In this document: piece after piece, positions 19,844 through 56,876 of the stretch
Numbering within the stretch: the stretch's first letter is position 1
How the letters are laid out: each line of letters starts with the position of its first letter
NCBI GenBank assembly: GCA_049999805.1
Contig: JBNGIO010006348.1
Span: 29,821-93,820, forward strand
Direction of reading: 5' to 3'
Length of the DNA: 64,000 nt
From: Folioceros fuciformis
Taxonomy: Eukaryota
Translations under genes and position numbers: made by a program
The notes under the pieces: model-generated
What the model was told of the DNA's origin: nothing
Database searches by the model: none
What the model saw: only the letters and a program-made list of their open reading frames with translations

Positions 19844-21790
19844 TTAGGGATCGTCTTTGCTGAGAGTCTGGGGGGCGGGAGGAGCCATTGGTGCAGGGCC
19901 AGAAGAAAACTCCGGCTCACTCACATGGTTAAACACGTTCAGGAGAGACGGAGGATCATGGCACAGGGGAGAGCGTGGGGTGCCTGGGTTCAGGGGAGAC
20001 GAAGAAGCTTCGTGCAAGGAAGCCAGTGAGGTGCCTGGGAAGGTGACTCCGTGCTTGCCAGAGCTGCTCCTCACGAAGAACTTGTCGTCCTTGATGTCGT
20101 AGTACTCCGCAGTTCGGACCTCCTGGCAGAGGGAGCAGAATGGGAGGAAGAACCACGAAGCGCAGTCTGTCAACCTAGGGTTCCTGCAGCACCAGGTTCT
20201 TGGGGGGAGGTTGAAAGTCTCTCGCATTCTGATCCTCCAGAACCCACCGTACAGCAGCCCAAAGACGCTGAGAGCAATCCCTGCACCACCGATGCCATGC
20301 CTGACATAGTAGTTGTCTAGGTTGATGGCAGCCAAATCGAAGATCCAGAAGGGGGCTGTGAGGAGAAGAACAAAGGTGACGATGTGCACGTAGCGGTTAC
20401 CGAATCCCAGCCTGTCCACGTTCCATCCGAACACGCACACAAAGCACACGAAGGAGAGGAGGGAGATGCCAGGCTCCATGTTCCAGTCCCATAACCCACC
20501 TTTCCACTGCGGGTTCTGCACCTCCTGATCCTTGCCTCCCTCCCTCTTGGCAAAGGACATCCTCTTCTCCAGAAGCCGGAAGTTCATGATCCCGATGTCG
20601 TACAGGGACGTCTCGCTCTCCAGGTGGACATTGCCCTCACCCTTCTCCAGCTCGGATGCCAGCCTCGAGTATTCCTCATCATCGAGTGCCACGAACTCCC
20701 GCCCCAGAGGACTCAGGCTGTTGTATATCCCTGCTGCAGCAGAACAGCCGATGGCAACGCTGAGGCACACTGCCACTCCTATGGCAGGCCGCTCCGACCT
20801 CTTGTAGCCCCAATTGAGCCCACACAAGGAGTACTGAGCAAAGCAGTTGAGGTGCAGCAGGCACACCACCACTGCGATGTGAAACCACTCGTGCAGCTTG
20901 CGGGTTCCGTTCTTGCAGTATGCCTTCCTCATCTTCACAATATCCCGGGGCTCCCAACGGTAGAGCAAATAAGAATGGTAGAATCTGGTGGGATGCAGGT
21001 ACAGGCACATGAGAGTGAAAAGCGCATTGAGAATCTGGTTGTTCACCTCGAACCAAGCATCCCTATCCTTCTTCTTAGGCAGAGCATGGTTCAGCATGCC
21101 CACCATGACCATGAACAGAATAGCCCCAGAGATCGCTACAGCCGAAATCCACACCAGAAGAGCCAGGTTCTTGGGGTTCCAAAGCCATTCCCTACTCTGC
21201 TGCTTCACAATCTGCCAGTCTATGTTCCCGAGCCTATGAATCCCGTCCTTGATGCGACTGGAGAAGGAATGTGACTCGGAAGGCGTTTTCCTGGAGACCT
21301 CCTCCTTGGCCTCCGCCAGGCGCTTGAAGGTGGCGGACGGGGTCAGCAGGCTTCTCTTGAACGGGGATATCTGAGACCCCGCTGCAGACTTAGCCGGCGA
21401 GCTCCCAGTGAAGGCAGAGTCCAGATCCCGGGACCTAAAGGGAGATCCTCTGAACGGAGATACGCCTCCCCCGTTCCCCAAGACAGAACCAGGTAGCAAG
21501 GGCGAGTTGGTCCGGAATGGCGACCGCAGCGGGGACCTGTAAGGAGAAGTCCCCTCCCCTGGAAGAGGAGACAGTGTGTCAGAGAGCTCCGAGTACCCGG
21601 ACGGCGCATTCTTCACCGACAAGCCGGATCCCTTGCTGCCAGCAGACGCAACGGAGCTGTTAATGCCCTCATCCTCCTCCTGCAGAAGGCCCTTCCGGGA
21701 AGCGGACTCCGACAGAGAAGCATGAGACTGAGCTCCCCTGCTTCCGCTAGAGTCTTCAGGCTCGTCGCCTGGGATCACGATTCTCGGCAT
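19844..21790 (-). CDS. DUF2985 + PLAC8 family membrane protein, single coding exon
   Basis: ORF of about 648 aa: SP-rich N-terminus, NPKNLALLVW, EVNNQILNALFTLMCLYLHP.R, QWKGGLWD, RIRMRETFNLP, CSLCQEVRT. First ATG at 21790. Confidence 0.88.
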   Translation of the reverse strand: MPRIVIPGDEPEDSSGSRGAQSHASLSESASRKGLLQEEDEGINSSVASAGSKGSGLSVKNAPSGYSELSDTLSPLPGEGTSPYRSPLRSPFRTNSPLLPGSVLGNGGGVSPFRGSPFRSRDLDSAFTGSSPAKSAAGSQISPFKRSLLTPSATFKRLAEAKEEVSRKTPSESHSFSSRIKDGIHRLGNIDWQIVKQQSREWLWNPKNLALLVWISAVAISGAILFMVMVGMLNHALPKKKDRDAWFEVNNQILNALFTLMCLYLHPTRFYHSYLLYRWEPRDIVKMRKAYCKNGTRKLHEWFHIAVVVCLLHLNCFAQYSLCGLNWGYKRSERPAIGVAVCLSVAIGCSAAAGIYNSLSPLGREFVALDDEEYSRLASELEKGEGNVHLESETSLYDIGIMNFRLLEKRMSFAKREGGKDQEVQNPQWKGGLWDWNMEPGISLLSFVCFVCVFGWNVDRLGFGNRYVHIVTFVLLLTAPFWIFDLAAINLDNYYVRHGIGGAGIALSVFGLLYGGFWRIRMRETFNLPPRTWCCRNPRLTDCASWFFLPFCSLCQEVRTAEYYDIKDDKFFVRSSSGKHGVTFPGTSLASLHEASSSPLNPGTPRSPLCHDPPSLLNVFNHVSEPEFSSGPAPMAPPAPQTLSKDDP

Positions 21791-22311
21791 CCCGACCAAC
21801 CTCCCTGCTCGTTCTCTCCGCGCTCCCGCACCTCACATTGCTCTAAGCAGGAACCTGCAGAGGCACATGATTTCGTCACAAGCCCTACAGCTAGCGGAAT
21901 TCAATTTCCACCTAGCTCACCTGTGAGCACCGCAGGCAGCTGGGGCAAGGAACTCAGCAAATGTTCTTGCAATGGCGCTCATCCCCACAGCCGGTCTACA
22001 TCCGCGTCCCGCCTCGGACATTGCCCAGCATCAGTCCCTTCCCAACCGAATCCCAAACGATGAAGGAAATTGGATGCCGTGAGTAAACAACGCCAGACAG
22101 TTACCGTTTACCGCGTTTGAAAGCAACCGTATGACAACCAGAGAAAGGAAGCTTGCTGGGACTCGCGTTGAATTGGTGTGCAATGGGAAGGAGACACGCG
22201 GATTGCTGGGATTGCGATGCTTGCTTCTGAAGTCAGCGAAGGAAGGCATATGTCATTTTCTGACCGTGTGAGTTTGTCGGGTAGGCATGGTGAGGTCGTT
22301 GGGTTGGCATC

Positions 22312-23577
22312 ATGCCGGACCCGGTGCTGTCCACCACCTGGAGCATCTTCTGTCAGCTGAAGGATCTGCGGGCCACGCAGCATAGCAATAGGGACGAGTG
22401 TGCTAGGCTTGCGAAGGTCATCGAGAGACTGCACAACAATCTGCAGATTCTGCTGGTGAGGTGGTTTGTTTTCCTTATCTGGGTCCGTTTGTGTCGGTTG
22501 AGACGGCTGTGTCGATGACTGACCATTTTGAGGCATGGCTCTCTTAGGCCAGTCCTGATGTGGGCCGATTCCAGCCAGTTTTACGGAAGATTGAGGTCTC
22601 CACCACAAATTGTTATGCGTTCGTGGAGTCCATCTCAGCTCGAGGCTTGAGATCCACATTCTTGAGTGAGAAAATCCCAGTGTTCAACGAACGTGCTCTG
22701 GACCAGTTCCTGCTGCAACATGACGAGCTGCACACGCTGACGGATGAGTTGCTACAGGAGTTGCTAAAGGTACGAGCTGTTTCGGAAGGAAGATGTTTCG
22801 GCGCAGTGTGGGTGAATGGTGCCTGACAGCGATCCGTTAATTCGTTATGGACAGGGTTTCCGCCCTGGGAAGCATCATGTTCCGACTGAGACTGTGTTTG
22901 GCGTAAGCAAGCTGAGAGCTACCAGTAGCAAGGACGATGATGTCCGGCTGAGGAAAGGGGAGAGGGCAAGCATCATCTTCATAGAAGATGGGGGCAAGGA
23001 GGAAATGTTCTACTCAGTGGACACCTGGGTAGTAACGCACGAGCAGGATTTCTTCAGCTGGCCTTCCACAGACCTGGCTGCAACTGTGACATGCAGGCAC
23101 ACCGGTAGGGTGTTTGATGTGAGCCAGCCTGCCAGCGGCAATGAATCTTTGTCCATCGCAGCTATCTCTGCCTCGGGTGTGTTGTGGGCGAATGTGAACT
23201 CCATTAGACCGGGTGGTGGGCGGTGGGGCCCCTTTTCCAAGCCTGCAGGGTCGCTCTTGAAGCGAGACCACGAGAGTATTTATGGGGATGGAGCCTACTC
23301 GTACGGATCTCAGGACTACCAGGTTGAGATATGCCTGACATCTGGTGCAGGGTTTGAGGCAGACCTGCAGCTGTTGAGAGTTACAGGCACGAAGGAGCAA
23401 CACCAGACTTACTACAAGTGCTGCCTTGATGGATCGGGGGAAGTGGTTGCCATTTACAGGCACTCGACAGAGGAATGTGAAGGCACGCTCCACCTGCTGG
23501 GACGCGGTAATCAGGCCCAGTTGCGGGACGTCATTGTCTCTAGCATTGCAGCCCTTGGGCTCACCAGCACCCTCTAA
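22312..23577 (+). CDS. Uncharacterised 362-aa protein: putative MLKL/MCAfunc-like N-terminal helical bundle plus LOR/Tubby-C-like domain
   Basis: Exons 22312-22455, 22548-22769 and 22855-23577, joined by phase-0 GT-AG introns of 92 and 85 nt, give one continuous ORF. The domain calls are by pattern only. Confidence 0.7.
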
Positions 23578-23680
23578 TCCACTTCCGGGATCCTGCCTTT
23601 GTCATTAGCTCCGAAAGTGGTTCCCAAATGCTTCTTCACGTTTTTTTCCCGCGTTTTTGTTGGGGCAGGAAGATTCTGTC

Positions 23681-26092
23681 ATGCTTCACTTAACACACCT
23701 AGGAGGTATCAGGAGAGATTGCTGCCCCGCTGCGAGCACCGGAGTGTATTGCAGCTGGAGATGGGTTGCGTTGTTTTTCAGTATGCGAGGTATCCGCACG
23801 TTTTCCTCTTTTGGAAGTCCTCTGCAAGACAGTCGAGTTAGGAAGCACCGGCCCTGTTTTGATTCTTACACCTGGGCCGACAGGATTGCAAGCTATTCCA
23901 AGCAAGGGCAGCATGAGGAAGCTATAAGAGTTTATCATCACTTAATGTGTGAGTTGAGAGCCACACCCACAGATAACATTTTTGTTGCAGTTCTGAAAGC
24001 ATGCACCAATTCAGGAGCACTGGTGCAGGGCAAAAGGATCCATTCCCACATCAAGGGATGTGGGCTGGAATCAAACGTCTTTGTGGGCAGTACCCTTATC
24101 GACTTTTACAACAGATGTGGGATGGTTATGGATGCACGTGAGGTTTTTGATGGGCTGCAAGTTAAAGATGTTGTGTCCTGGAATGTCACAATTGCTGGAT
24201 ATGCGCTGCATGGGCTTGGCCAGGAGGCACTTAAGCTCTTTCACTGGATGCAACAAGAAGGCACACATCCTAATCGAGCCACGTTTCTGAGCGCTCTGAA
24301 AGCATGCTCTGGCACTGCAGCCTTGGAACAGGGCTCACTTGTCCATGCTCATATCAGGGCAAGTCACTGGGAATCTGATCTCCATGTGGGGAATACGCTC
24401 ATTGACATGTATGCCAAGTGTGGAAGCATGAAGGATGCACGTCAAGTGTTTGACGAATTACCTTTTAAAGACACGGTGTCATGGAGTACACTACTGGTGG
24501 GGTATGCTCATCAAGGCGAAGATCAGCAAGCCCTTGAGCTGCTTCAAACAGTGCAACAGGAGGAGGGCGTGTATCCCGACAAGGTGATGCTTCTCAGCAT
24601 TCTGAAAGCATGTACCAACACGAAAGCGTTGGCACAGGGCAAACTAGTTCATGCCCTTGTTCTCAAGTGTGGTCTTGACTCAGATGCCTTCGTTGGGAGC
24701 TGCCTGATTCATATGTATGCCAAGTGTGGACACCTCGATGATGCCCGTGAAGTGTTTGATAGGTTGCCGACAAAAGATCTGGTCTGCTGGACAGCAATGG
24801 TCACCGGGTATGCCCAGCACGGGTGTGAACAGAAGGCCATTGCACTCTTCCAGGAAATGCAACAGGCGGGCATGCATCCCAATACAGTAACTCTTGTTAG
24901 TATCCTGAAAGCCTGCTGTAGCACAGGAGCTCTCGAGCAGGGCAGGCTCATTCATGCTCATATTTTGGGAGGCGGCTTGGAACCAGACACCTTTGTCGGG
25001 AACACGCTTATCTATTTCTATGCAACGTGCGGGATACTTGATGAGGCCTGCACATTGTTTGAACGGTTACCGGTGAGGGATTTGGTGTCTTGGAACGGAG
25101 TGATAGCTGGATGTGTCAGTCACGGTCACGGACAGAGGGCACTTCAGCTCTTTCAACAAATGCAGTGTACTGACGTACCTCCGGATAAAATCACTGTCAT
25201 CACCATCCTGAAAGCTTGCTCAAGTGTAGCAGCTTTGGATCAGGGCAAGTCAGTACATACCCTGGTGACGAAACTCGGGCTTGACTCTGACATCTGTGTT
25301 GCCAGCACGCTCATTGACATGTATGCAAAGTGTGGCAGCCTGAAGGATGCATGCACGGTGTTCCACAGATTACCAACAAAAAATCTCGTCACGTGGAATG
25401 CAATGATTTCTGGTTATGCCCAACATGGAGATGGAGAGCAGGCACTGAGGCTCTTTTCCAAAATGCAGGCGGAGGGCATTAGGCCAGACAGCCTCACTTT
25501 CCTGGCAGTGCTATTCGGGTGCAGTCACGCGGGTTTGGTGGAAGAAGGCAATCGCCTGTTCAAAACTATGTTGAAGGATTCTGACATCAACCCTGAGACT
25601 GGACATTACGCATGTGTGATCAACATTCTAGGTAGGGCAGGCTATTTGGAAGAGGCGGATCTCTTGATCAAGAACTTGCCATTTCCACCTGACATTGCCC
25701 TGTGGATGTCCTTCCTTGGGGCATGCCGAACACATAAAAAAGTGGAGCTGGGAGAAACAGCTTTCCAGTGCCTTGTGCGTTTGGATCCAACAAATGCGTC
25801 TGGCTACATTCTGATGTCAAGAATATATGCTGAAGCAGGCCGGTTCGAAGACAGTGTAGAACTGCGAAAGCAAATGGTGAGGGAAGGTGTTAAAAAGGAG
25901 CCTGGCTGCACCTGGATAGAATTGAGCAATGAAGTGCATACGTTCGTAGTAGAAGACAAGCAAAACGTGGAACGGCAACAAATATATGCCGTCCTTGACA
26001 GTCTCTGGCGGGCAGTTGAAAGGGATGGAATGAACACAAGCACAGCAGATTTGCTGGACGACCGGGTTCCACAAAGTGGAAACCTAAGTTAG
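23681..26092 (+). CDS. PLS-class PPR protein, E/E+ type (PG box present, DYW deaminase truncated); C-to-U editing specificity factor
   Basis: Repeated P-L-S motifs (LIDMYAKCG, VSWN), E1/E2, KKEPGCTWIE...VHTFVVED, ending before HxE. ATG at 23681 or 23783 (MRGIRTFSSF resembles a mitochondrial presequence). Confidence 0.93.
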   Translation: MLHLTHLGGIRRDCCPAASTGVYCSWRWVALFFSMRGIRTFSSFGSPLQDSRVRKHRPCFDSYTWADRIASYSKQGQHEEAIRVYHHLMCELRATPTDNIFVAVLKACTNSGALVQGKRIHSHIKGCGLESNVFVGSTLIDFYNRCGMVMDAREVFDGLQVKDVVSWNVTIAGYALHGLGQEALKLFHWMQQEGTHPNRATFLSALKACSGTAALEQGSLVHAHIRASHWESDLHVGNTLIDMYAKCGSMKDARQVFDELPFKDTVSWSTLLVGYAHQGEDQQALELLQTVQQEEGVYPDKVMLLSILKACTNTKALAQGKLVHALVLKCGLDSDAFVGSCLIHMYAKCGHLDDAREVFDRLPTKDLVCWTAMVTGYAQHGCEQKAIALFQEMQQAGMHPNTVTLVSILKACCSTGALEQGRLIHAHILGGGLEPDTFVGNTLIYFYATCGILDEACTLFERLPVRDLVSWNGVIAGCVSHGHGQRALQLFQQMQCTDVPPDKITVITILKACSSVAALDQGKSVHTLVTKLGLDSDICVASTLIDMYAKCGSLKDACTVFHRLPTKNLVTWNAMISGYAQHGDGEQALRLFSKMQAEGIRPDSLTFLAVLFGCSHAGLVEEGNRLFKTMLKDSDINPETGHYACVINILGRAGYLEEADLLIKNLPFPPDIALWMSFLGACRTHKKVELGETAFQCLVRLDPTNASGYILMSRIYAEAGRFEDSVELRKQMVREGVKKEPGCTWIELSNEVHTFVVEDKQNVERQQIYAVLDSLWRAVERDGMNTSTADLLDDRVPQSGNLS

Positions 26093-32407: not shown

Positions 32408-32627
32408 AACGAGTTTGTTGATCGGTGCAAGAAGGGCATGGCTGCCTTTCCCGGAACCAAGCGCCAGGCAAGCGCCTCAGTGAGGCCTGCTGTGTACGTT
32501 GAGCTCTGTGCGACTCTGCATCGTTTTTCATTCATGCTGATTCTCTCCAGTGTGGGATGAGTGATTTTTTGCCGAATTTGTGTGGCTAAAGGAGGAGACT
32601 GGTAACAAACTGAACTCCTTTTGGCAG

Positions 32628-34770
32628 GAAGAGGCGGAGGACAGTTGACAATGTGAAGGGGGCTACTAGGGTTGCCGTGAAGGATGGCAAGCCGGGCCGA
32701 GGCTCACGCAAAGGAAGCCTGGCTCAGTCAAAGAAGCCTGTTCGAATACAGGGCAAGGCAGACGGTGGTAATCCGGGGGCTAAGAGAAAGTTTATCAAGG
32801 GCTCTGATGCAGGTACGGGGAAGGAGAAGGGGGCGGGGTGTTCCAAGGCCAAACAGTTTGATAAGAAGGAGTTGTCAAATGTACGGGGATCGGCTCCGAA
32901 GTGGAGTAAGGCTTCCGCTGCGGACGGAAGCAAGTCTGACTCGGCTGGCAAGTCCCTACAGGATCGGAAAGCTAGGAAGGAGCTGACGGAAGCTCGGAAG
33001 AAACGGCGAAGGGTTCACTATGATTTGAAGAAGGAGGTGGTGGCGATATGGGAGAAAATGAGGGCGAGACATACCTCGAAGGAGGAACGTCGGCAATTTG
33101 CGTCGGAAGCCTTGGGGATGATGAAAGGAAAGATGGTGGCGCTGGCATTGGGCCACATCACTTCCCGAGTGTTGCAGTGTTGCGTGAAGTACTGTTCCAA
33201 CGAGGAGCGCACTGCGGTTTACGAGGAGCTGCGACCGCATTGCCTGACCTTGGCCCGGAACACGTATGCGTATCACCTGGTTACCAAAATGTTCGACCAT
33301 GCAACGAAGGATCAGACTGAGCAGATGATTGCGCAGTTGCACGGGCAGGTTGTGGCGTTACTCCGTCATCCTAGTGGCTCAGCTGTGGTTGAACATGCTT
33401 TTAATCTGGGGAACAAAACTCAGAAGCAAGAGTTGTTATCTGAGTTCTACTCCCCGGAGTACCGGTTATTCAAGGGTATCTTAATTTCAGGCTCAGGTCG
33501 GATAGCAGATGTTCTAAAGGCGGAGCCTTCGAAGAGGAACACTGTTTTGCAGCATATGACCTTGTCACTACAGCCTATTTTGGAGAAGGGTATTGTCGAT
33601 CATTCCATAGTCCATAGGGCTGTGCTTGAGTATTTCAGCATTGCCTCGAGACGGCTAGCAGAGGATGTGGGTCAACAGCTCGCTGGTCCTCTGCTGGTGC
33701 GTATGATTCATACCAAAGATGGGGCCGAGGTTGCAGTGATCTGTGTCATGCGAGGAAACACGAAAGATCGGAAAAAGATCGTGAAGGGTCTGAAGGGACA
33801 CGTGGGTAAAATTGCCCGGGAGGAGTATGGTCATGTGCTATTGCTTGCCATTCTAGAGGTTGTTGATGATACAACACTCGTATCGAAGTTCGTCATCAAG
33901 GAGCTGGTGAAAGAGCTGAAAGATTTGGCCTTGGACAAGTATGGACGTAGAGTACTGTTACAGCTTTTGGCACCGGGGGTACCCCGCTACTTCCCGCCGA
34001 ATGTGCTTGGGCTTCTGCAGGCACCCCGGGAGTCTGATCAAGCGCTTCAGGGATCTGTCTCTGGGACATCAGTTGAAGTGGAGAAGGGGGCGGATGCCGA
34101 AATGAAGGACGTCGACGAAGTGAAGCAGGATGTGCGAAAAAACGATGCAGCGAATGGTAATCAGGATGAAGATGAGTTCGAGGAGGGTGGGCAGGACAGG
34201 GGAGCAGGAATCAGTAAAAAGGATCCAGAAGTGAGGAGAAAAGAACTCTTAGTTGACAGTGGTCTCGCCAAGAGCCTCACTCAAACGTGCATCGAGCACG
34301 CTGGTGAGCTTATGAGATCACCTCTTGGTACAGACGTTCTTTACGAGGTGGCCATGGCCGGGTTGGACGGCATGCTTTGGTCACCCCTTGGCGGACAACT
34401 TAGTGATTTGCATCAAGCCATTGCCAACCTCGCCGCCGTTTCTGAGGATGCACAGGCCACGGGAGAGGAAAGCGAGGAAGAGCATGTATTGGTGCAGTAT
34501 CATGCCAGCAGGACGCTTCGTCGACTAGTCCTGAACGCGAAACCACCACCCGAGGGGACCAAGGCGCCATCCTTTGCCAAGACGTTGTGGTCAATTGCGT
34601 TGCAGGGTCGGGCCAAGAAGTGGGCACAGGGGTACGGTGCTAGGGTGGTTTCTGCCTTCCAAAACTGCGCTGATCCGCCTGCGCAGGACGCTGCGAAGCT
34701 CGAGCTGCAGAAACTAGTTGACGCCGGTAATTTACCCGCTCGAGGCGCAGCTCCAAGTCGAAACAAATGA
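32628..34770 (+). CDS. PUM24: Pumilio 24 / Puf6 / PUM3-like nucleolar RNA-binding protein with CPL domain; the start lies in an unresolved upstream exon
   Basis: Lys-rich N-terminus, WEKMR, HITSRVLQCCVKY, LLRHP, EFYSPE, MIHTKDGA, KDRKKIVK, VVDDT.LV.K, DKYGRRVLLQLL, SKKDPEVRRKEL. Splice acceptor at 32626-32627. Confidence 0.88.
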
Positions 34771-36361: not shown

Positions 36362-36897
36362 CTGCTCGTGGCTTGGTCCTCTCCACCTCCTGTCTCCGTC
36401 CGAGGCTTTGTACATCCTCAGTGCGTCTGCCATTCAGGGTGGATACTCAAGACTCTACCAACGAGCCGAAGCGGAAGTGGATCAACACACAAAGATCAGC
36501 CGCAAGGCGAGATCATCAAGCTGCGTTAACGTAAAGAGATCATCAGCTGAATTGGCCGCTGGTGCGGCCTCCAATTGATCCCTGCCATTGTTTGTGTGGA
36601 AGTCTGATGTCGCTCCGCAGGCATCCCAAGACTGTCTCTTGAATCTTACGCCGATGTGTGTAACTGGACTGTCGGAGGGAATTCAACCCTGTTACCGTCA
36701 AGTTCTGAAGTGGTCATCCAGTAGACATGATTTTCTGAGCTTGGAAAGGAAGATTGAGAAGCTCTGTAAAGGAAATGAAGCCACCAGGGTTCACGATATA
36801 ATGGACTCTTCTGTGGAAGCCGTATCACTGGCTCTTAAAAAAGTACAGCAATACAGCAATTTAAAAATCTGAACCCTAAAAAACTGTGTCAGAAAAA

Positions 36898-41383: not shown

Positions 41384-44300
41384 ATGACGCGTTGGAGCAA
41401 TGTGGCCGTGTCGAGTTTGGTTCGCAGGAAGTCGGCTCTATCAACATATTTGGATTACTACCTCAGACATATGTCATCTTTACAGAGCGGGACGGGACAA
41501 GTGCTATCTACTGAGAGTTACCGTAAGTTCCTGGATGTATGCTGGATAATCTCACCCTTTTCGGTAACTGTTTTCTGGATGTGAATTTGAGAATCTCTCA
41601 AATTGGTGTAGCTGACCTGCAGTGGATCCAAGCGCGAGGTCTGTATGGGCAGACTTTGTGGGCGATTCTTCACGGTGGCGGGCTAAAAGGGTGGATTTTC
41701 GGGATAGAACAGGGGAAGTGATATGGGTTGACCCGCAGACGTTGTGGGTAGGAGAAAAATCAGCACAGGATGTTGATTCCTGTAGGATATCGGGACAGGT
41801 TGCCGAATCCCAGGGAGCTGACAAGTCTGAGCTTTTGAGGTCCCAGACTCACCCGCCGGGTTGTTTCTTTGGTGTTATCTTGCTCGTTGGCTGGTTGTGA
41901 CAAGTCATCTAAATTTTGCAGGTTGAAGGAGGCAGTGGAAGAGCTGGACCGTCTGGTACAGCAAGGGTCGTTTATTCCGGATTCCCTGTTTTACAGTGTT
42001 CTGAAGGGATGTACTGTGGGGAACGATGTGCTTGTGGGCAGTCGTGTGCATGGCCTCGCTGTGAAAAGTGGAAGGGTCTCAAATACATTTGTAGCCAATC
42101 ACATTGTCCGGATGTATGCCTCTCATGGAAAGTTGCTGGAGGCGACGCAGGTGTTTAACAGACTGGTTACGAGGAATGCCTTTTCGTGGTTTTCAATCAT
42201 TGTGGCACATGCTGATAATGGCCAGCCTGAGCAGGCTATGAGGCTGTATCAACAGATGTGGCAATCGGGAGTGCAGCCCAACAACCATATTTTTGCTGTG
42301 GCCCTCAAAGCATGTGCCAATGCCGGGGATTTGCAAGCTGGCAAGCTGGTCCATGCAGATGTTTTGTTAAGTGCAGTTGAGCCTGATTTGTTTGTTGGCA
42401 ACAGCCTGGTGGACATGTATGCAAAATGTGGCAGTTTAGATGATGCTCGAAGAGTATTTGACAGTCTGCCTACCCGAAACACAGTGACATGGAACACCAT
42501 GCTTGCAGGATATGCTCAGCATGGACTAGCTCAACAGGCCCTTAATTTGTACTCGTGTATGCAGAAGGAGAGACTCACTCGAGCCAATAATGTTACATTC
42601 GTCTGCCTCTTGAAAGCGTGTGCTGCTGTTGGATGCTTGAAAGAGGGGGAATCCCTTCATTCTCAGCTTCAAGAAAGCGGGATAGCCATTGATATTGTTC
42701 TTGGCAACTGCCTGATAGACATGTATGCAAAATGTGGCAGCCTAGACAATGCACGCAAGGTTTTTGACGAATTGCCTACACGGGATGTGGTAACATGGAA
42801 TGCCTTGATAGCAGGTTATGTTCAGCACAATGATGGGAAAGAAGCTCTTGCTCTTCACAAAATCATGCAGGAGGATGGAACTACTGAAGCCAATCATGTC
42901 ACATTTGTATCCGCCCTGAAAGCATGTACACAGATGGGTGCACTATCTGAGGGGAAGGAGCTGCATTTGCAGATTCAGAAAAGAGGACTGGACAGTGATG
43001 TTACAGTAGGCAACTGCCTCGTGGATATGTACACCAAGTGTGATAATTTAGAGGATGCTCGCAAAGTGTTTGAACGATTGCCTACTAGAGATGTGGTCAC
43101 ATGGAATAGCATGATCGCAGGCTATGCTGAGCATGGCCAGGGTCAAGAGGCCCTTGTTCTTTACAAGAGGATGCAAGTGGAAGGCCAAATCCCACCTAAT
43201 CAGGTCACTCTTGTTTGTGCTCTAAAATCATGTGTAAGTGTGGGAGCTTTGCATCTTGGGAAGCAGCTCCATGTCCTCATTCAAGAAGAAGGCCTGGAAG
43301 TGGATGTGATTCTTGGTACCTCACTAGTGGACCTGTATGCAAAACATGGCAATTTAGAGGATGCCCGCAGAGTGTTTGATCGACTAGCCTCACGAAACTT
43401 GGTCACATGGAATGTTATGATCGCAGGCTATGTGCAGCACGGGCTTGGCCAAGAAGCTCTCAGCCTTTATGCATGTATGCAACATGAATCTGTGACCTCA
43501 GATCATGTGACGTTGGTTTGCCTGCTCAAAGCCTGTGCCAGTGTTGGAGCTCTCTGTCAGGGGCAACAGTTTCATATCCAGGTAAAGCAAAGGGGCTTGG
43601 AGGGTGAACTTGGAAGCAGCCTGGTGGACATGTATGTAAAATGTGGGGATTTGCAGGCCGCTCGTGAAGTGTTCAATAGATTGCACACCAAGGATGTAGT
43701 TACCTGGACTGCTCTCATGAATGGGTATGCTCAGCATAACCAGTCCCAGATGGCAATCCTGTGTTTTCAAGAAATGCAGGAGCAAGGAGTTGTCCCTGAT
43801 GCTGCTTCTTTTCTCTGTCTTCTCCTGGCGTGCTGTCATGATGGCCTTGTGAACGAGGGCCTGCAGTACTTCAGGGCGATGGTGGAAGACTATGGTATCG
43901 TACCGTCTATCTATCACCACACGTGCATGGTTGACCTTCTTGGGCGTGCAGGCTTCCTCGAGGAAGCAGAAAACATGTTGCATAAAGAGTCACTTGTGAC
44001 CGACATTGGGGCTTGGATGTCTTTGCTGGCTTCATGCAGAAGCCACAGTGATGTAGAGCGTGGAAGGCGATGTTTCGATCGTATAGTGAAGTTGGAGCCC
44101 CAGAACGCCGCACCATATGGGCTTCTGACGGACATTTACACAAATGCTGGCAGGTGGAGAGATGTGCACATGGTGGAAAGTCTGAGAAAGGTAGCGGGTG
44201 CATGCAAGAAGCCTGCCCGCGCCTGGATTGAGGTGAATAACAAGGTGCACTCCTTCATTGTGGGAGAAGAGAGGGCTGACATTTCCTCCAAGCTCAAGAG

Positions 44301-44601
44301 TGTGAATATGAAGTTGGAGGTAGGTGGTAATGTCCAACACACGGACCTATTGCTGAAGACACAGGGAGGAAAAGAAGATGCCTTGTGTGGACATGCTGAG
44401 AAACTGGCTTTAGCTTATGGTTTGTTGAACACTCCGGATGGATCAACTCTTCTAGTGACAAAAAATCTCCGCATGTGCAACGATTGTCACAGTGGAACCA
44501 AGGCCATGTCGAAAGTAGAGAAGAGAGAGATAATTGTTAGAGATGCACACCGAATCCACCATTTTGTAGATGGGTTTTGCTCCTGTGGAGATCGTCATTA
44601 A
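41384..44601 (+). CDS. PLS-class PPR protein with DYW:KP (DRH-type) domain; candidate U-to-C RNA editing factor, likely mitochondrial
   Basis: KKPARAWIEV in place of the PG box, no SHP motif, GHAEKLA, CNDCH, ending CSCGDRH. Predicted exons 41384-41522, 41623-41824 (or 41839) and 41922-44601 are phase-consistent. Confidence 0.93.
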
Positions 44602-45185: not shown

Positions 45186-47308
45186 TTACCTCTCCGGACC
45201 TGCCCAGAAGTTTTTTTCTTTCGGGCCAGTGGGTCCTTCCTCTCCTCCGAGCTCACCTGGAAGCTTGTCAAGGAGATCGGTCAATGAGTTTCTCAGTTTA
45301 CTCGGCAGGGCTGAAAGCAGTTTGTCAAGCTCAGTCCTGAAATCATATTGTATCGAGGGGCCCCATTGTCTCATGTACTGCAACCATGGGGGCTCTTCCA
45401 AGCAACTTTCCACTAGGCCTCTCGCTCCCAAATACTCCATGGACACAATCTGGTATGCTGTGCTAACATCTAGGATAAACTTGCTCCTGGCTGTATCGTT
45501 CCGTATTCCCACCCCGAGAGTACTATCTCCTTGCAGGTTGACACCCTCGTGGGCATATGCCGAATGGCCATTCTTGGAGGAGTACACCACAGGATGGTTG
45601 AGTGAGATGAACTCTAGGTCGCCTGGCTTCAGCCATTGTCCCTTGCTGTGCTCCCCGAAGTAGATCTCCTGCAGCTCCCCATAAAAGTTGCCTATCCTGA
45701 GAGTAAAATGTTCCCAGTCCGACACATGTTCCCCAATTTTGCCCAGGGATAAATTGATCAATTTGATTTTGGCCTTGCTTGCTCCGTTGAAGGGGTAGTA
45801 AATCCAGCATTGGACTTCTGTGGTGGTTCCACCGAACATGGATTTGACGTGCACATACGTTTCAGCCGACCCCAAGTTTCCTTTCTTTACCTCATCGGCC
45901 GTCCCATCGTTCGGTAAATCAATCCAGTATTCCCCGTCGTTAGTCCCTCCAGCTGGTAAATTGGATCCGTCCAAGCTGATCCTCTCAGGGCTGGAAGTCG
46001 AGTTTTTTTTATACAGCAAAGCCCCCTGACTGAATACCCAAGACACGGAGGAAGGGAGGTACTTTTCTTCTGGGTGGAAGAAGACAGTAGGACCATAGCT
46101 CTTCATGAGCCATTGAACCTGCTCCAAAGTTGGCATGGCATGCAGATTCCTGCTCACGTTACTAAGGCAGGTCACTGGAAGTGCATCCACTGGCCCTAGA
46201 CTGGCATCGCTGTAGAAAGTCCCCACATTCACTCCAGTTCCTGTCACGCCCACCTCCAAAGGCGTCACGGTCCAGATTCTAAACGGAGACCTGTTGGAGT
46301 TGGTGCTCCAGAGAGCTGCATCCGCAACGCCGTCCTCCGTGAGATCTGACCGCACACAAACTACTTCTTGGATGTTAGGCTTGGCTTCGGTTGTAGTCAC
46401 CACGTATCCCAGCGTTTTATAACCAGTGGGTGCGACCGGCATCCAAAAGTAAGCAGGGCCACTCTGCTTCCCACTCCATGTGTTGCTGCTCCAGACGAAG
46501 GTGTAGTCGATTGGGCAAGCCAATGGGGAGGCGTCATTCAAACGAACAGGATGTGCCAAAGAGTCACACTCCTGCACTGCAGGAAGGTGCATAGCGCAAG
46601 AACTCAGGCTTCCAAGTGATTCTTATCCCACTTGCAGAAAGACGATCAAAGAAAACTTCACCGAGCCGGCTAAGCTGTGAAATCTCATTTTCTTCCTGCA
46701 CAGGCTACTTCAAAGAAATATCTTACCGTTGAAAGAACTGGTTTCTGCCACCGCAAGCATCCATCCAACAGGCTCGCCGTTGATTTGGCAGTGATGTCCG
46801 AGGCAGAAAAATTCCGAAGGTAAGGACAGAGGCTTGTATACGGCAGCCCCAGAGTTGTTTTGCCCTGGGAAGCTGCTCCAAACCACATCGAGCGACCAAA
46901 TCTGAGTGACTGTAATCTCTCCAAGAGATATAGTCCCAGTTCCAAAGCCTGTTCCTGTTGGATGTGCACAAACTAAAATTCTTGAGAAAGTTGTGGACAT
47001 CAACACCTTCGAAAGAGTTCGTCCCAATACCTTGAGAACAACAAACTAACTAACACTTCACCAAAAAATACCCGACCTGTGCCACCCAACTTTCAAACTC
47101 GCAATCACTGTAGTCCGGAAAACCAGCTTCTCAAGGAAAGCTGAGTGGCATGCCACGACGAAACTAACATGCATGACTTACCCGTCGGCCATTCCGGGAC
47201 TGGTCCGAGCATTCCAGAATTGCTGTTCAACTCCCGTAGCTCCGCCAAGGATGAGACAGTGGTGTTAGATCCTCCCCAGGGCCAGGTTAGGCAGCCACAC
47301 CGCACCAT
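45186..47308 (-). CDS. Vps62-related (DUF946) protein
   Basis: PEWP.GTGFGTGTISLG, YFWMPVAPTGYKTLG, AMPTLEQV, YGPTVFFHPEEKYLPSSVSW, YYPFNG, GEHVSDWEHFTLRI, YSSKNGH, EPPWLQYMRQWGP, EEGPTGPKEK..W.G.ER. Confidence 0.9.
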
Positions 47309-54315: not shown

Positions 54316-56876
54316 ATGGCACTTCTCTTGCCCTCTCAGCTCCAGCAGAGTCAGGTGGCCAAGGTGTCGTACATCGGCTCCTTGAAGCAATCGGAGGCGC
54401 TGCGCGGGCGACGCCGCCGGTCCTGCAAAATCAGAGCGGAAGGTGTGGGTGAGAGCCAGGGGCACTCTGCAGACCAGGCCGCGAGCTTCACTCCGGCGCC
54501 AAAGCCTGTGGACCGGAAGGGGGCGGTGAATCGAGCTGTGGTGGCCGAGAGAGTTGGAGGTGTTGAGGCGCGGCAGGAGGAGAGGTATCCTGGGTATGCT
54601 TCCTGGAACACTGTCAAGCAGCCGAGATGGGAAGGGGAGCTGGAACTGCAGGGAGAAATCCCGAAGTGGCTGGTACGTGACTTTTGTGGAGGTTAAGTAG
54701 GTGTCTTGAAGAAGGCGTGTCGTGAATTGAAGCGGGCTCAGGTTTGCGGTCTTGGTTGCTGATGCAGAGTGGAACGTATCTCCGAAACGGGCCTGGAAGC
54801 TGGAAGACTGGGAACAGGGAATTTGAGCACTTGTTCGACGGGTGAGTGGTGGAACTTTGCTTCTGACATCTGGTGGCTGCAATCTTCATTTCCTTCGGTA
54901 GGGAGTGATGGAGTGTGCGATGTGATCGGCCGCCATCCAGGTACTCAACCCTCGTCCGCCTCCACTTCGACAACGGGAAGCTGGTATGCGGGCACGCGCA
55001 GCTGCAATCGGAGGCATATAAGCAGGCCACCGACAAGCAGCGCCCCATGTACCGAGAATTCAAGGCTGTCCCGGACGGGAACGTGTTCGAGCGGATAACT
55101 GAGCTCGCCGGGATGGCCACGGGCCACACTCTCACCGACAACGCTAACACGGGAGTCATCATGTAAGCTGCCTGCATCCTGCACTCCTACAGCACGCCAC
55201 GCCACCCCACGCTACGGCCACATTCTTCAAGCTTGAAACATTCGTGCTTGAAACTGATTCTTGATGCAGGCTCGGAGACGGACGAGTCCTGTGCTTGACG
55301 GAGACCATGAAAGGGACCATTCAGATTGATCCAAACACGCTGGAAACCATGGGAAAATTCACATACGAGGACGGATTCCAGGTCCTACTCTCGGACTGCC
55401 TTCTTCCATGCTGCTGCACAGCGCCAGCAAACACACCTCCTACTCTAGTCCTAAGGCTTTTTTTTCTCTCATCCATACATTTGAATGGGTGGCCGCAGGG
55501 ACTCGTGCACTCCGCTCATCCCTACGTAGACTCCAAGGAATTCATCACGCTGCTGCCGGACCTGATCAACCCTGGCTACACCGTCGTGCGCATGCCCGCC
55601 GGATCAAACACCAGGCAGCTTATTGGCAGGGTGAGCCACAACACCTCTTCCACCTTCCTCACTGTGTTCCTCACGGCTTGGACCGCATGCGGCAACACTT
55701 TCTTCATTTCTTTTGGCGCTCCGTCCAGGTCCCATGCAAGGGCAAGGGCGCCCCGGGATGGGTGCACTCCTTCGCCGTGACGGAGAACTACATCGTGGTA
55801 CCGGAGATGCCACTGCGCTACTCCGCCATGAACCTCCTCAAGAGCGAGCCCTGCCCGTACTACAAATTCGAGTGGCTCCCTGACAGCGGAGCCTACATGC
55901 ACATCCTCAACAGGAAAACCGGCGTCCTGGTAACAAATTCTGCCACGCCTCTCCAATGCTCTTCCACTTCTCACCCGCCCTTCCCCGTCCCTCACTCCAC
56001 CACACTTGCTCAGGAAGCGTCAGTGGAAGTTCCACCTTTCGTCACCTTCCACTTCATCAACGCGTACGAGGAGCCCGCGGAGGACGGCAAGCCCGCGAGA
56101 GTGATCGCGGACTGTTGCGAGCACTACGCTAACCCTGTCATTCTCCAGCGCCTGGAACTCCATGAGCTCCGAGCTTTCCCCGGCAAGGTTCTTCCCGACG
56201 CCAGGTACCGTACCACATTCCATCCCTCCCTCCTCCTCCTCTTCCTCCTCTTCCTCCTCCTCCTCCTCCTCCTCCTCCGCTCTTGTCATAAGTGCATGGA
56301 CTCACCCTTTCCAAACCGCATGAATCCGCAGGGTTGGGAGGTTCACCATCCCGCTCGACGGGTCCAGCAAGGGCACATTGGACGCGGCTGTGCCGCCAGA
56401 CGCGCACGGCAGGGGCCTGGACATGAACACTATCAACGACAGCTTCAAGTCCAAGAAATATCGTTACGTCTACGCATCTGGAGCACACCGCCCTTGCAAC
56501 TTCCCTAACAACCTAGTGAAGGTGGATTTGGTGGACAAGAGCGCCAAGACGTGGTACCACGACGGCGGCATCCCCACTGAGCCATTCTTCGTTCCAAGGC
56601 CCGGCGCGACCGAAGAAGACGACGGTTTGTACTCCCAACCGAGCCCCCTTCCACCCCGAGCCAAAACGGAACGGGACCAAAGCCCTGCAGGCTCTCAGCA
56701 CACTCTACCGTTCCGTTTCACTGTGCGCAGGCGTGGTTATATCCCTTGTGAGCGACGACAGCGGCGGCGGCTTCGTCATCCTCTTCGATGGCCAGACGTT
56801 CGAGGAGATCGCCCGAGGGGACCTGCCCTACGGCCTGCCCTACGGACTGCATGGATGTTGGGTGCCAACCAAGTGA
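54316..56876 (+). CDS. CCD8: Carotenoid cleavage dioxygenase 8 (strigolactone biosynthesis), 9 exons
   Basis: WEGELELQGEIPKWL, GTYLRNGPG, HLFDGY, LTDNANTGV, HSAHP, PGWVHSF, TFHFINAYEE, GAHRPCNFPN, EPFFVPRPGATEEDDG, PYGLPYGLHGCW. All four iron-binding His motifs are present. Confidence 0.96.
56225..56278. repeat. (CCT/CTT)n microsatellite in a CCD8 intron
   Basis: A run of CCT units with two CTT interruptions. Confidence 0.9.

Follow-up and report, generated by a model that had tools for sequence, protein, structure and literature searches.

The window analysed here is a stretch of 64,000 nucleotides (nt) of Folioceros fuciformis DNA (contig JBNGIO010006348.1, positions 29,821 to 93,820 of the forward strand), and all coordinates below refer to it. 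Its + strand carries a transcribed three-exon nuclear gene (22312–22455, 22548–22769, and 22855–23577), which splices in phase into a product of 362 amino acids (aa). The product is a soluble protein of two domains. Judged from predicted models, residues 1–122 very probably form a four-helix bundle and residues ~139 to 362 a Tubby-like barrel, and the gene is called the bundle-barrel gene hereafter. By sequence comparison, the protein falls into a small separate family, which is without a Pfam model and has so far been seen only in mosses, liverworts, and hornworts.

Gene Structure and Transcripts

The start ATG lies at 22312 and the stop codon TAA at 23575–23577. The coding part of exon 1 (22312–22455, + strand; 144 nt, 48 codons) encodes the first two helices of the N-terminal bundle. 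Intron 1 (22456–22547, +; 92 nt, GT..AG, phase 0) interrupts the coding sequence at the loop that joins helix 2 to helix 3, and exon 2 (22548–22769, +; 222 nt, 74 codons) supplies bundle helices 3 and 4. Intron 2 (22770–22854, +; 85 nt, GT..AG, phase 0) is placed at the end of helix 4, that is, at the domain boundary, where a reading of this DNA made earlier from its letters alone (the sequence-only reading) had also put it. Exon 3 (22855–23577, +; 723 nt, 240 codons plus TAA) holds a short linker and then the Tubby-like barrel, from ~22903 onward. Close to its end lies the hydrophobic C-terminal helix AQLRDVIVSSIAAL (23515–23556, +), which was mapped by alignment from helix 360–373 of the Marchantia model described below. 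This helix belongs to the most conserved block of the family, ending ...GLTSxL, and is predicted to run through the barrel. The helix limits and the intron-to-fold mapping were carried over from the model of the Marchantia homologue through the family alignment.

Assembled contigs of four public runs (X1, X2, X3, and X7) were placed on 20500–25500. The listing gave the run type as ‘RNA? (a guess)’, and the RNA origin was read from the contigs themselves. X1 contained 0.77 of the sampled words of 22100–23800. As its three long pieces showed 0 differing letters, X1 comes from the organism of the window itself; since the introns are absent from its contigs yet present in the genome of the same organism, these contigs come from RNA. 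X2 represents organism B, and X3 and X7 represent organism C, with ~4–11 differing letters per 100 on the long pieces.

Both junctions, 22455^22548 (92 nt) and 22769^22855 (85 nt), were exactly skipped in all four runs, which cover three organisms. The first junction was carried in X1 by one 288-nt contig of depth 3.6 with only 26 letters beyond the joint, and in the other three runs by contigs with 151–221 letters on the short side. For the second junction, the short side measured 190–221 letters across the four runs (190 in X1). The sequence-only reading had joined these three exons and set spliced transcripts beforehand as the check; the contigs of 4/4 runs bear out the three-exon model and both of its junctions. 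Exon 2 differs at 8/221 places in organism B and at 13/221 in organism C, whereas within 21892–22304 whole blocks of 66–95 nt have other sequence in organism C. The exons are thus far better conserved than the adjacent non-coding DNA.

The 5′ untranslated region (UTR) spans at least 22193–22311 (+), as an X1 contig with 0 differing letters starts at 22193. Two upstream open reading frames (ORFs) were read from the sequence within this transcribed 5′ region, and both overlap the main ATG at 22312. The first runs from ATG 22217 (with a further in-frame ATG at 22250) to a stop at 22360 and the second from ATG 22287 to a stop at 22385, both on the + strand. The stretch 22230–22304 is replaced by other letters in organism C, so these upstream ORFs may not be conserved. 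The window holds at least one N, and none lies within 21800–24200. A tblastn search of the window with the spliced product matched only its own gene; the next-best match, at 36642–36830 (E 0.25), reads as unrelated sequence and was rejected as a paralogue.

Family and Relatives

An exhaustive HMMER search with the exon 3 product over 1,835,955,588 representative proteins gave 13 proteins at E ≤ 1e-3. For eleven of these (E 3.4e-21 to 1.3e-4), the alignment covers the C-domain and includes a shared, most conserved block at the very C-terminus, ...YYKC...EVLAvYRH...G.lH.lG.GN...lR..IV..F.AlGLTS.L. The remaining two are long repeat proteins (725 and 676 aa; E 6.8e-4 and 8.0e-4, respectively) without the C-terminal block and were excluded as chance matches. 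A word-indexed homologue search with exon 3 gave no match, and the same kind of search with the family alignment returned only three proteins, all already among the family. Pfam matched no family to the three exon products at E up to 10, the sole row being a chance-level Gp34_trimer (E 0.12), and for the 15 rows of the family alignment (E up to 1) it gave nothing better than E 0.059.

All named relatives are bryophyte (moss, liverwort, and hornwort) proteins annotated only as ‘hypothetical’ or ‘uncharacterized’. Taken alone, these relatives point to a probable bryophyte as the source plant. Orthologues in bryophytes had been proposed as a check, and homologues were found in Marchantia polymorpha (MPTK1_7g16400, 379 aa), Riccia fluitans (380 aa), Riccia sorocarpa (453 aa), Nothoceros aenigmaticus (379 aa), Ceratodon purpureus (462 aa), and Physcomitrium patens (421/630 aa). 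A helical N-region aligned to exons 1–2 stands ahead of the C-domain in 6/6 named full-length members. Exon 3 is collinear with residues 146–377 of the Marchantia protein over exon 3 residues 14–238 (E 1.5e-20), and the exon 1 and exon 2 products are 51% and 45% identical, end-to-end, to its N-terminus. Because the Marchantia protein aligns unbroken across the join of exons 1 and 2, this splice is confirmed independently of RNA. Identity between the window protein and the Marchantia protein is 57/120 (47.5%) for the N-domain and 79/218 (36%) for the C-domain.

In the tree of the C-domains, the mosses form one group (support 100/100), and a second group (84/91) holds R. sorocarpa, Nothoceros, and four further rows. 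The window protein and the Marchantia/R. fluitans pair are unplaced between the two groups. The N-domains of the two Riccia proteins differ greatly (19% versus 42–48% identity to the window protein). As the two Riccia proteins sit in different tree groups and their N-domains have diverged, an old duplication with at least two paralogue types is suggested. A peroxisomal targeting signal (PTS1) was considered for the C-terminus and rejected: only one relative ends in SKL, the window protein ends in STL, and others end in SDF, SDL, SEL, SAV, etc.

Predicted Folds of the Two Domains

Folds were predicted with AlphaFold2, using the family alignment, for the Marchantia homologue MPTK1_7g16400 and not for the window’s own protein. 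The full-length model had a mean predicted local distance difference test (pLDDT) score of 80 and a predicted template modelling (pTM) score of 0.84. It showed helices at 7–23, 29–50, 54–84, and 101–125, a low-confidence linker at 130–144, then 13 strand segments, one of them just 3 residues long, and finally a helix at 360–373. The gap between bundle and barrel amounts to ~23 linker residues. A separate model of the N-domain gave helices at 7–27, 31–51, 56–87, and 101–125 (pLDDT 74, pTM 0.67). The up-down four-helix bundle is present in both models, the full-length one and that of the N-domain alone, in agreement with the N-terminal bundle that the sequence-only reading had proposed.

PMC2639001 describes the Tubby-like fold as a barrel of 12 strands with a C-terminal helix through its centre. 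The Marchantia model has the strands and the C-terminal helix of the superfamily of Tubby, LOR-DUF567, and scramblases, and its structural scores agree with membership. In a structural search of this model against 48,161 PDB representative chains, the C-domain (145–379) matched mouse Tubby, 1i7e_A, at rank 1 (Z 11.5, root-mean-square deviation (rmsd) 3.7, 156 aligned) and the LURP-one/DUF567 protein At5g01750, 2q4m_A, at rank 3 (Z 11.3, rmsd 3.5, 142/162 aligned). Among the top 50 chains listed, these were the only barrel-domain matches. A second look with VIA, which realigns Foldseek’s list of matches, placed six Tubby/TULP1/At5g01750 entries at Z 11.1–11.7, and the next beta folds (FapF, designed barrels, and porins) reached Z 8.0 or lower. 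The VIA alignments extend to model residues 375–379 and to the C-terminal helices of Tubby and At5g01750. Foldseek gave probabilities of 0.99 for 1zxu and 0.95 for 1s31, with no barrel match at E ≤ 1e-3. The language-model neighbours of exon 3 were a ‘Tubby C-terminal domain-containing protein’ cluster and a DUF6593 cluster (0.87–0.88), which we take as a lead only. A PDB sequence search with exon 3 returned only noise (best E 0.66, a prolidase).

At the level of the predicted model, the Tubby/LURP-one/scramblase fold, with ~12 strands round its own hydrophobic C-terminal helix, is established for the family. Since exon 3 is collinear with the corresponding part of the Marchantia protein, the fold applies to the window protein by homology. 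The LOR/Tubby-C-like barrel with a central helix, another proposal of the sequence-only reading, is thus borne out by the distance in Z to the next beta fold and by the Foldseek probabilities.

The strongest amphipathic stretches of the window protein are residues 27–49 (helix 2) and 108–132 (around helix 4). The N-domain carries a net charge of −2 and the C-domain one of −6. Transmembrane anchoring was considered and rejected, as no stretch reaches the usual threshold (top 19-residue Kyte–Doolittle mean 1.33). No Pfam match to a kinase or to NB-ARC/NACHT was obtained with the exon products (E up to 10) or with the 15 family rows (E up to 1), so the description of the protein as kinase-free and NB-ARC-free holds.

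Neighbouring Genes

Upstream, in head-to-head orientation, lies a gene on the − strand (19844–22049) with a 662-aa open frame that matches DUF2985 (E 3e-27) and PLAC8 (E 1.3e-15). Its X1 contig shows a 66-nt intron in the 5′ UTR (21853–21918, GT..AG on the minus strand) and reaches 22049; the contig with the 5′ UTR of the bundle-barrel gene begins ~145 nt away. Downstream lies an intron-less PLS-type pentatricopeptide repeat (PPR) protein gene (23609–26092, +) with an E motif and no DYW, which starts within ~100–150 nt of the stop codon of the bundle-barrel gene. One X1 contig spans exon 2, exon 3, and this PPR gene up to 25345, which argues that the two transcripts overlap or read through; a single contig across two genes is not proof of one joint transcript. 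Many contigs from paralogous PPR genes accumulate at 24341–24507 and 25176–25500.

Other long frames of the window read as ordinary plant genes. They encode a PUF/CPL (NOP9-like) protein (32614–34770), a PPR-E-DYW protein of the editing-factor type (41839–44601), a Vps62 protein (45186–46622, − strand; E 5e-187), and an RPE65/carotenoid-oxygenase fragment (55330–56508). The density of PLS-type PPR genes together with the short introns would fit a compact, PPR-rich land-plant genome.

Possible Kinship of the Bundle and Proposed Mechanism

The sequence-only reading had likened residues 1–122 to the MLKL/HeLo/MCAfunc bundles and proposed a possible immune executor with a lipid-binding or decoy sensor domain; it also took the intron at the domain boundary as a hint of exon shuffling. 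The immune executor, the decoy sensor, and the exon shuffling are conjectures. In the VIA second look at the N-domain, the best natural match was the RPW8-type coiled-coil (CC-R) domain of NRG1.1, 7l7v_B (Z 11.4, rmsd 3.0, 105/109), and the executioner domain of MLKL, 6zz1_B, reached Z 11.1 (rmsd 3.1, 113/140, 17% identity). Further matches were MLKL 6zvo_B (10.8), MLKL 6d74 (10.4), NRC2 (10.4), a second NRG1.1 entry (10.3), and the coiled-coil (CC) domain of Rx (10.2). CC-R, MLKL, and CC domains made up 7 of the top 17 rows and had the highest identities (14–17%). Foldseek’s highest TM-scores for the bundle also belonged to MLKL (6zvo_B, 0.63/0.60). Among the language-model neighbours of Marchantia residues 1–130, a set of 6/30 matches had at its top a cluster in which 22% of the members carry MLKL_N (0.90), and a streptophyte cluster carried MLKL_N on 57% and MCAfunc on 13% (0.88). 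The C..L...h..L spacing of helix 2 is present in the window protein, and its Cys is kept in 5/7 aligned sequences. This C-x-x-L-x-x-x-h-x-x-L spacing may resemble that of MLKL.

The following points weigh against this kinship and against the executor proposal built on it. All bundle Z values lie under the tool’s bar of ~Z 13 for helical bundles, and they tie with those of designed bundles (10.8–11.7), a sperm microtubule protein, IncA, and the Cbl TKB domain; the scores of the designed bundles, the sperm protein, and Cbl TKB span Z 10–11.7. The Foldseek E-values for the bundle were 0.25 or worse, and no MLKL or CC chain appeared among the top 50 listed in the search of the full model against the 48,161 representatives. 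The language-model scores were computed from part of a protein, which is outside the calibration of the tool. Pfam gave an MLKL_N, MCAfunc, RPW8, HeLo/HELL, or Rx_N match in 0/8 N-domain rows (E up to 10), and the same families were found in 0/3 exon products (E up to 10) and 0/15 family rows (E up to 1). These Pfam negatives are weaker than the cut-offs suggest because the HMMER filters drop most matches above ~E 0.1. When the N-domain profile was run against PDB sequences (E up to 10), neither an MLKL nor a CC chain came up; the best match was a designed repeat protein (E 0.049). For the barrel, neither exon 3 (E up to 10) nor the 13 C-domain alignment rows (E up to 1) matched Pfam Tub, LOR, Scramblase, or DUF6593. 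The window protein has no predicted transmembrane segment, the models are those of a homologue, and no result here bears directly on cell death, immunity, or membranes.

Weak Pfam rows among the eight N-domain sequences were PUB2_N, a PUB2-like N-terminal domain (E 0.036, in 1/8), and FAM180 (E 0.013).

Of the proposed MLKL/HeLo/MCAfunc assignment, the bundle fold therefore stood and the sequence link did not (Pfam 0/8, no match of the PDB profile), with the structural Z values tied with de novo bundles; graded against that claim, the language-model neighbourhood is its sole positive lead. We consider it possible that the bundle is akin to the MLKL/RPW8 group, with chances somewhat short of even.

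If this kinship holds, the following mechanism can be drawn. The barrel would bind a small ligand, for example the head group of a membrane lipid, as Tubby-like domains do, and would position or restrain the bundle. The bundle would be the output module, possibly membrane-acting, of the MLKL, RPW8 (CC-R), or CC kind; once released, it would oligomerise and act on membranes. The protein would thus be a kinase-free, NB-ARC-free relative of the executors, with a Tubby-like barrel in the place of the pseudokinase of MLKL. This mechanism in full is a tentative proposal by analogy, which we hold to be rather unlikely. A more specific form of it, a bryophyte stand-alone executor whose MLKL/RPW8-like bundle would be kept in place and directed by a Tubby-like lipid-binding barrel and which was lost or replaced in vascular plants, is less likely again. 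We keep the executor reading as a lead because the positive leads point to it and because it is directly testable. The existence of the Marchantia homologue MPTK1_7g16400 makes the family a tractable test case.

The same architecture could instead house a bundle that has nothing to do with MLKL/RPW8 and serves as an ordinary scaffold or as a module for interaction or dimerisation. In that case we would be looking at a lineage-specific adaptor of the Tubby/LOR-like kind, whose barrel takes a lipid or small ligand and whose bundle takes a protein partner, with no membrane damage. Four-helix bundles are among the commonest folds, and the best structural matches include Cbl TKB, IncA, chemoreceptor sensor domains, and de novo bundles at the Z of MLKL and NRG1. 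This explanation also agrees with the lack of any Pfam or PDB sequence link to an executor family, with the lack of an unusually hydrophobic N-terminal helix or a transmembrane segment, and with the full-length pTM of 0.84, which fits a fixed arrangement of bundle and barrel (no interface measure came with the model). It accounts less well for the MLKL_N-bearing clusters among the language-model neighbours (the 6/30 set and the streptophyte MLKL cluster) and for the 7 of the top 17 second-look rows, with the highest identities, that went to CC-R, MLKL, and CC domains. The N-domain is also better kept than the barrel in comparison with Marchantia (47.5% versus 36%), which argues that the bundle is more than a passive spacer. 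An ordinary module has, in our estimate, a substantial chance of being correct that stays below one half; taken singly, it comes out slightly ahead of the executor reading, and the two are close.

A membrane-tethered regulator in the manner of Tubby and the scramblases is improbable. Here the barrel would sit on plasma-membrane phosphoinositide and be released by a signal to, for example, the nucleus, with the bundle as effector or partner-binder. The best barrel matches do include PI(4,5)P2-bound Tubby (1i7e) and IP3-bound TULP1 (3c5n), and, in PMC2639001, the Tubby fold is reported to bind phosphoinositide and the superfamily is proposed to consist of membrane-tethered transcription factors. 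The identity to Tubby is only 8–9%, however, both domains are net negative (−2 and −6), and no nuclear-localisation or DNA-binding feature was seen, no search for such features having been made. A functionless or wrongly modelled transcribed locus with a fortuitous three-exon open frame would agree with the two upstream ORFs across the start codon, with the word-indexed search that gave no homologue, and with the single low-depth contig that carries the first junction in the window’s own organism. Two-domain full-length homologues in six named bryophytes (liverworts, mosses, and a hornwort), both junctions in three organisms, exons conserved where the flanks are not, and the confident fold of the homologue make such a locus highly improbable.

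Comparison with Known Systems

Within open papers searched by gene identifiers and topic terms, supplements and non-open papers excepted, neither the bundle-barrel fusion nor the family was found described; the sequence-only reading, too, had known no such architecture from the literature. Both folds are already known; what appears new is their fusion and the sequence family.

The barrel resembles the Tubby C-terminal domain (1c8z, 1i7e, 1s31, 3c5n, and 2fim) in being a closed barrel round a hydrophobic C-terminal helix (Z 11.1–11.7, 156–174 residues aligned). It differs from Tubby/TULP1 in its low identity (8–9%) and in having no Pfam Tub match. The N-terminal parts known from Tubby-like proteins of plants and animals are of other kinds (in plants, an F-box) and not a four-helix bundle. 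The LURP-one-related At5g01750 (1zxu/2q4m) shares the fold and has a similar domain size (Z 11.3–11.4, 142/162 residues aligned), but the identity is 10%, there is no LOR Pfam match, and a conserved bundle precedes the barrel here. LOR proteins are, to our knowledge, single-domain proteins. For this plant family, PMC8624885 and PMC10264818 report some members that are needed in defence against Hyaloperonospora. By sequence, the window protein is not a member of Tub, LOR, Scramblase, or DUF6593.

The MLKL executioner (four-helix bundle/HeLo) is alike in its N-terminal up-down bundle of ~125 residues (Z 10.4–11.1, 112–116 aligned, 16–17% identity), a bundle described in the literature as a membrane-acting module. 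Here, unlike in MLKL, there are no brace helices, no pseudokinase follows the bundle, there is no Pfam MLKL_N match, and the structural score is no higher than that of generic bundles. As it is without brace helices and pseudokinase, the protein is not an MLKL. Plant MLKLs are reported as conserved across seed plants in 10.1101/681015, whereas the present family was seen in bryophytes only. The CC-R domain of NRG1.1 (7l7v/7l7w) and the CC domains of NRC2 (8xuq) and Rx (4m70) share the bundle fold, with 7l7v_B at Z 11.4. These receptors differ in that no NB-ARC or leucine-rich repeat domain follows the bundle here, no RPW8 or Rx_N Pfam match was obtained, and the Z values tie with designed bundles; by its sequence, the protein is no nucleotide-binding leucine-rich repeat receptor. 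The likeness to the executor bundles, as judged from the models, is at the fold level only.

What the family adds to these systems depends on the bundle. If it is not of the MLKL/RPW8 type, the protein still represents a conserved, bryophyte-restricted Tubby-fold family. If it is of this type, the family would add to the ways in which plants are known to use that module. If the stand-alone executor reading were true as well, the bundle-barrel protein would be a third wiring of the membrane-acting module in plants, besides those with a pseudokinase and with NB-ARC.

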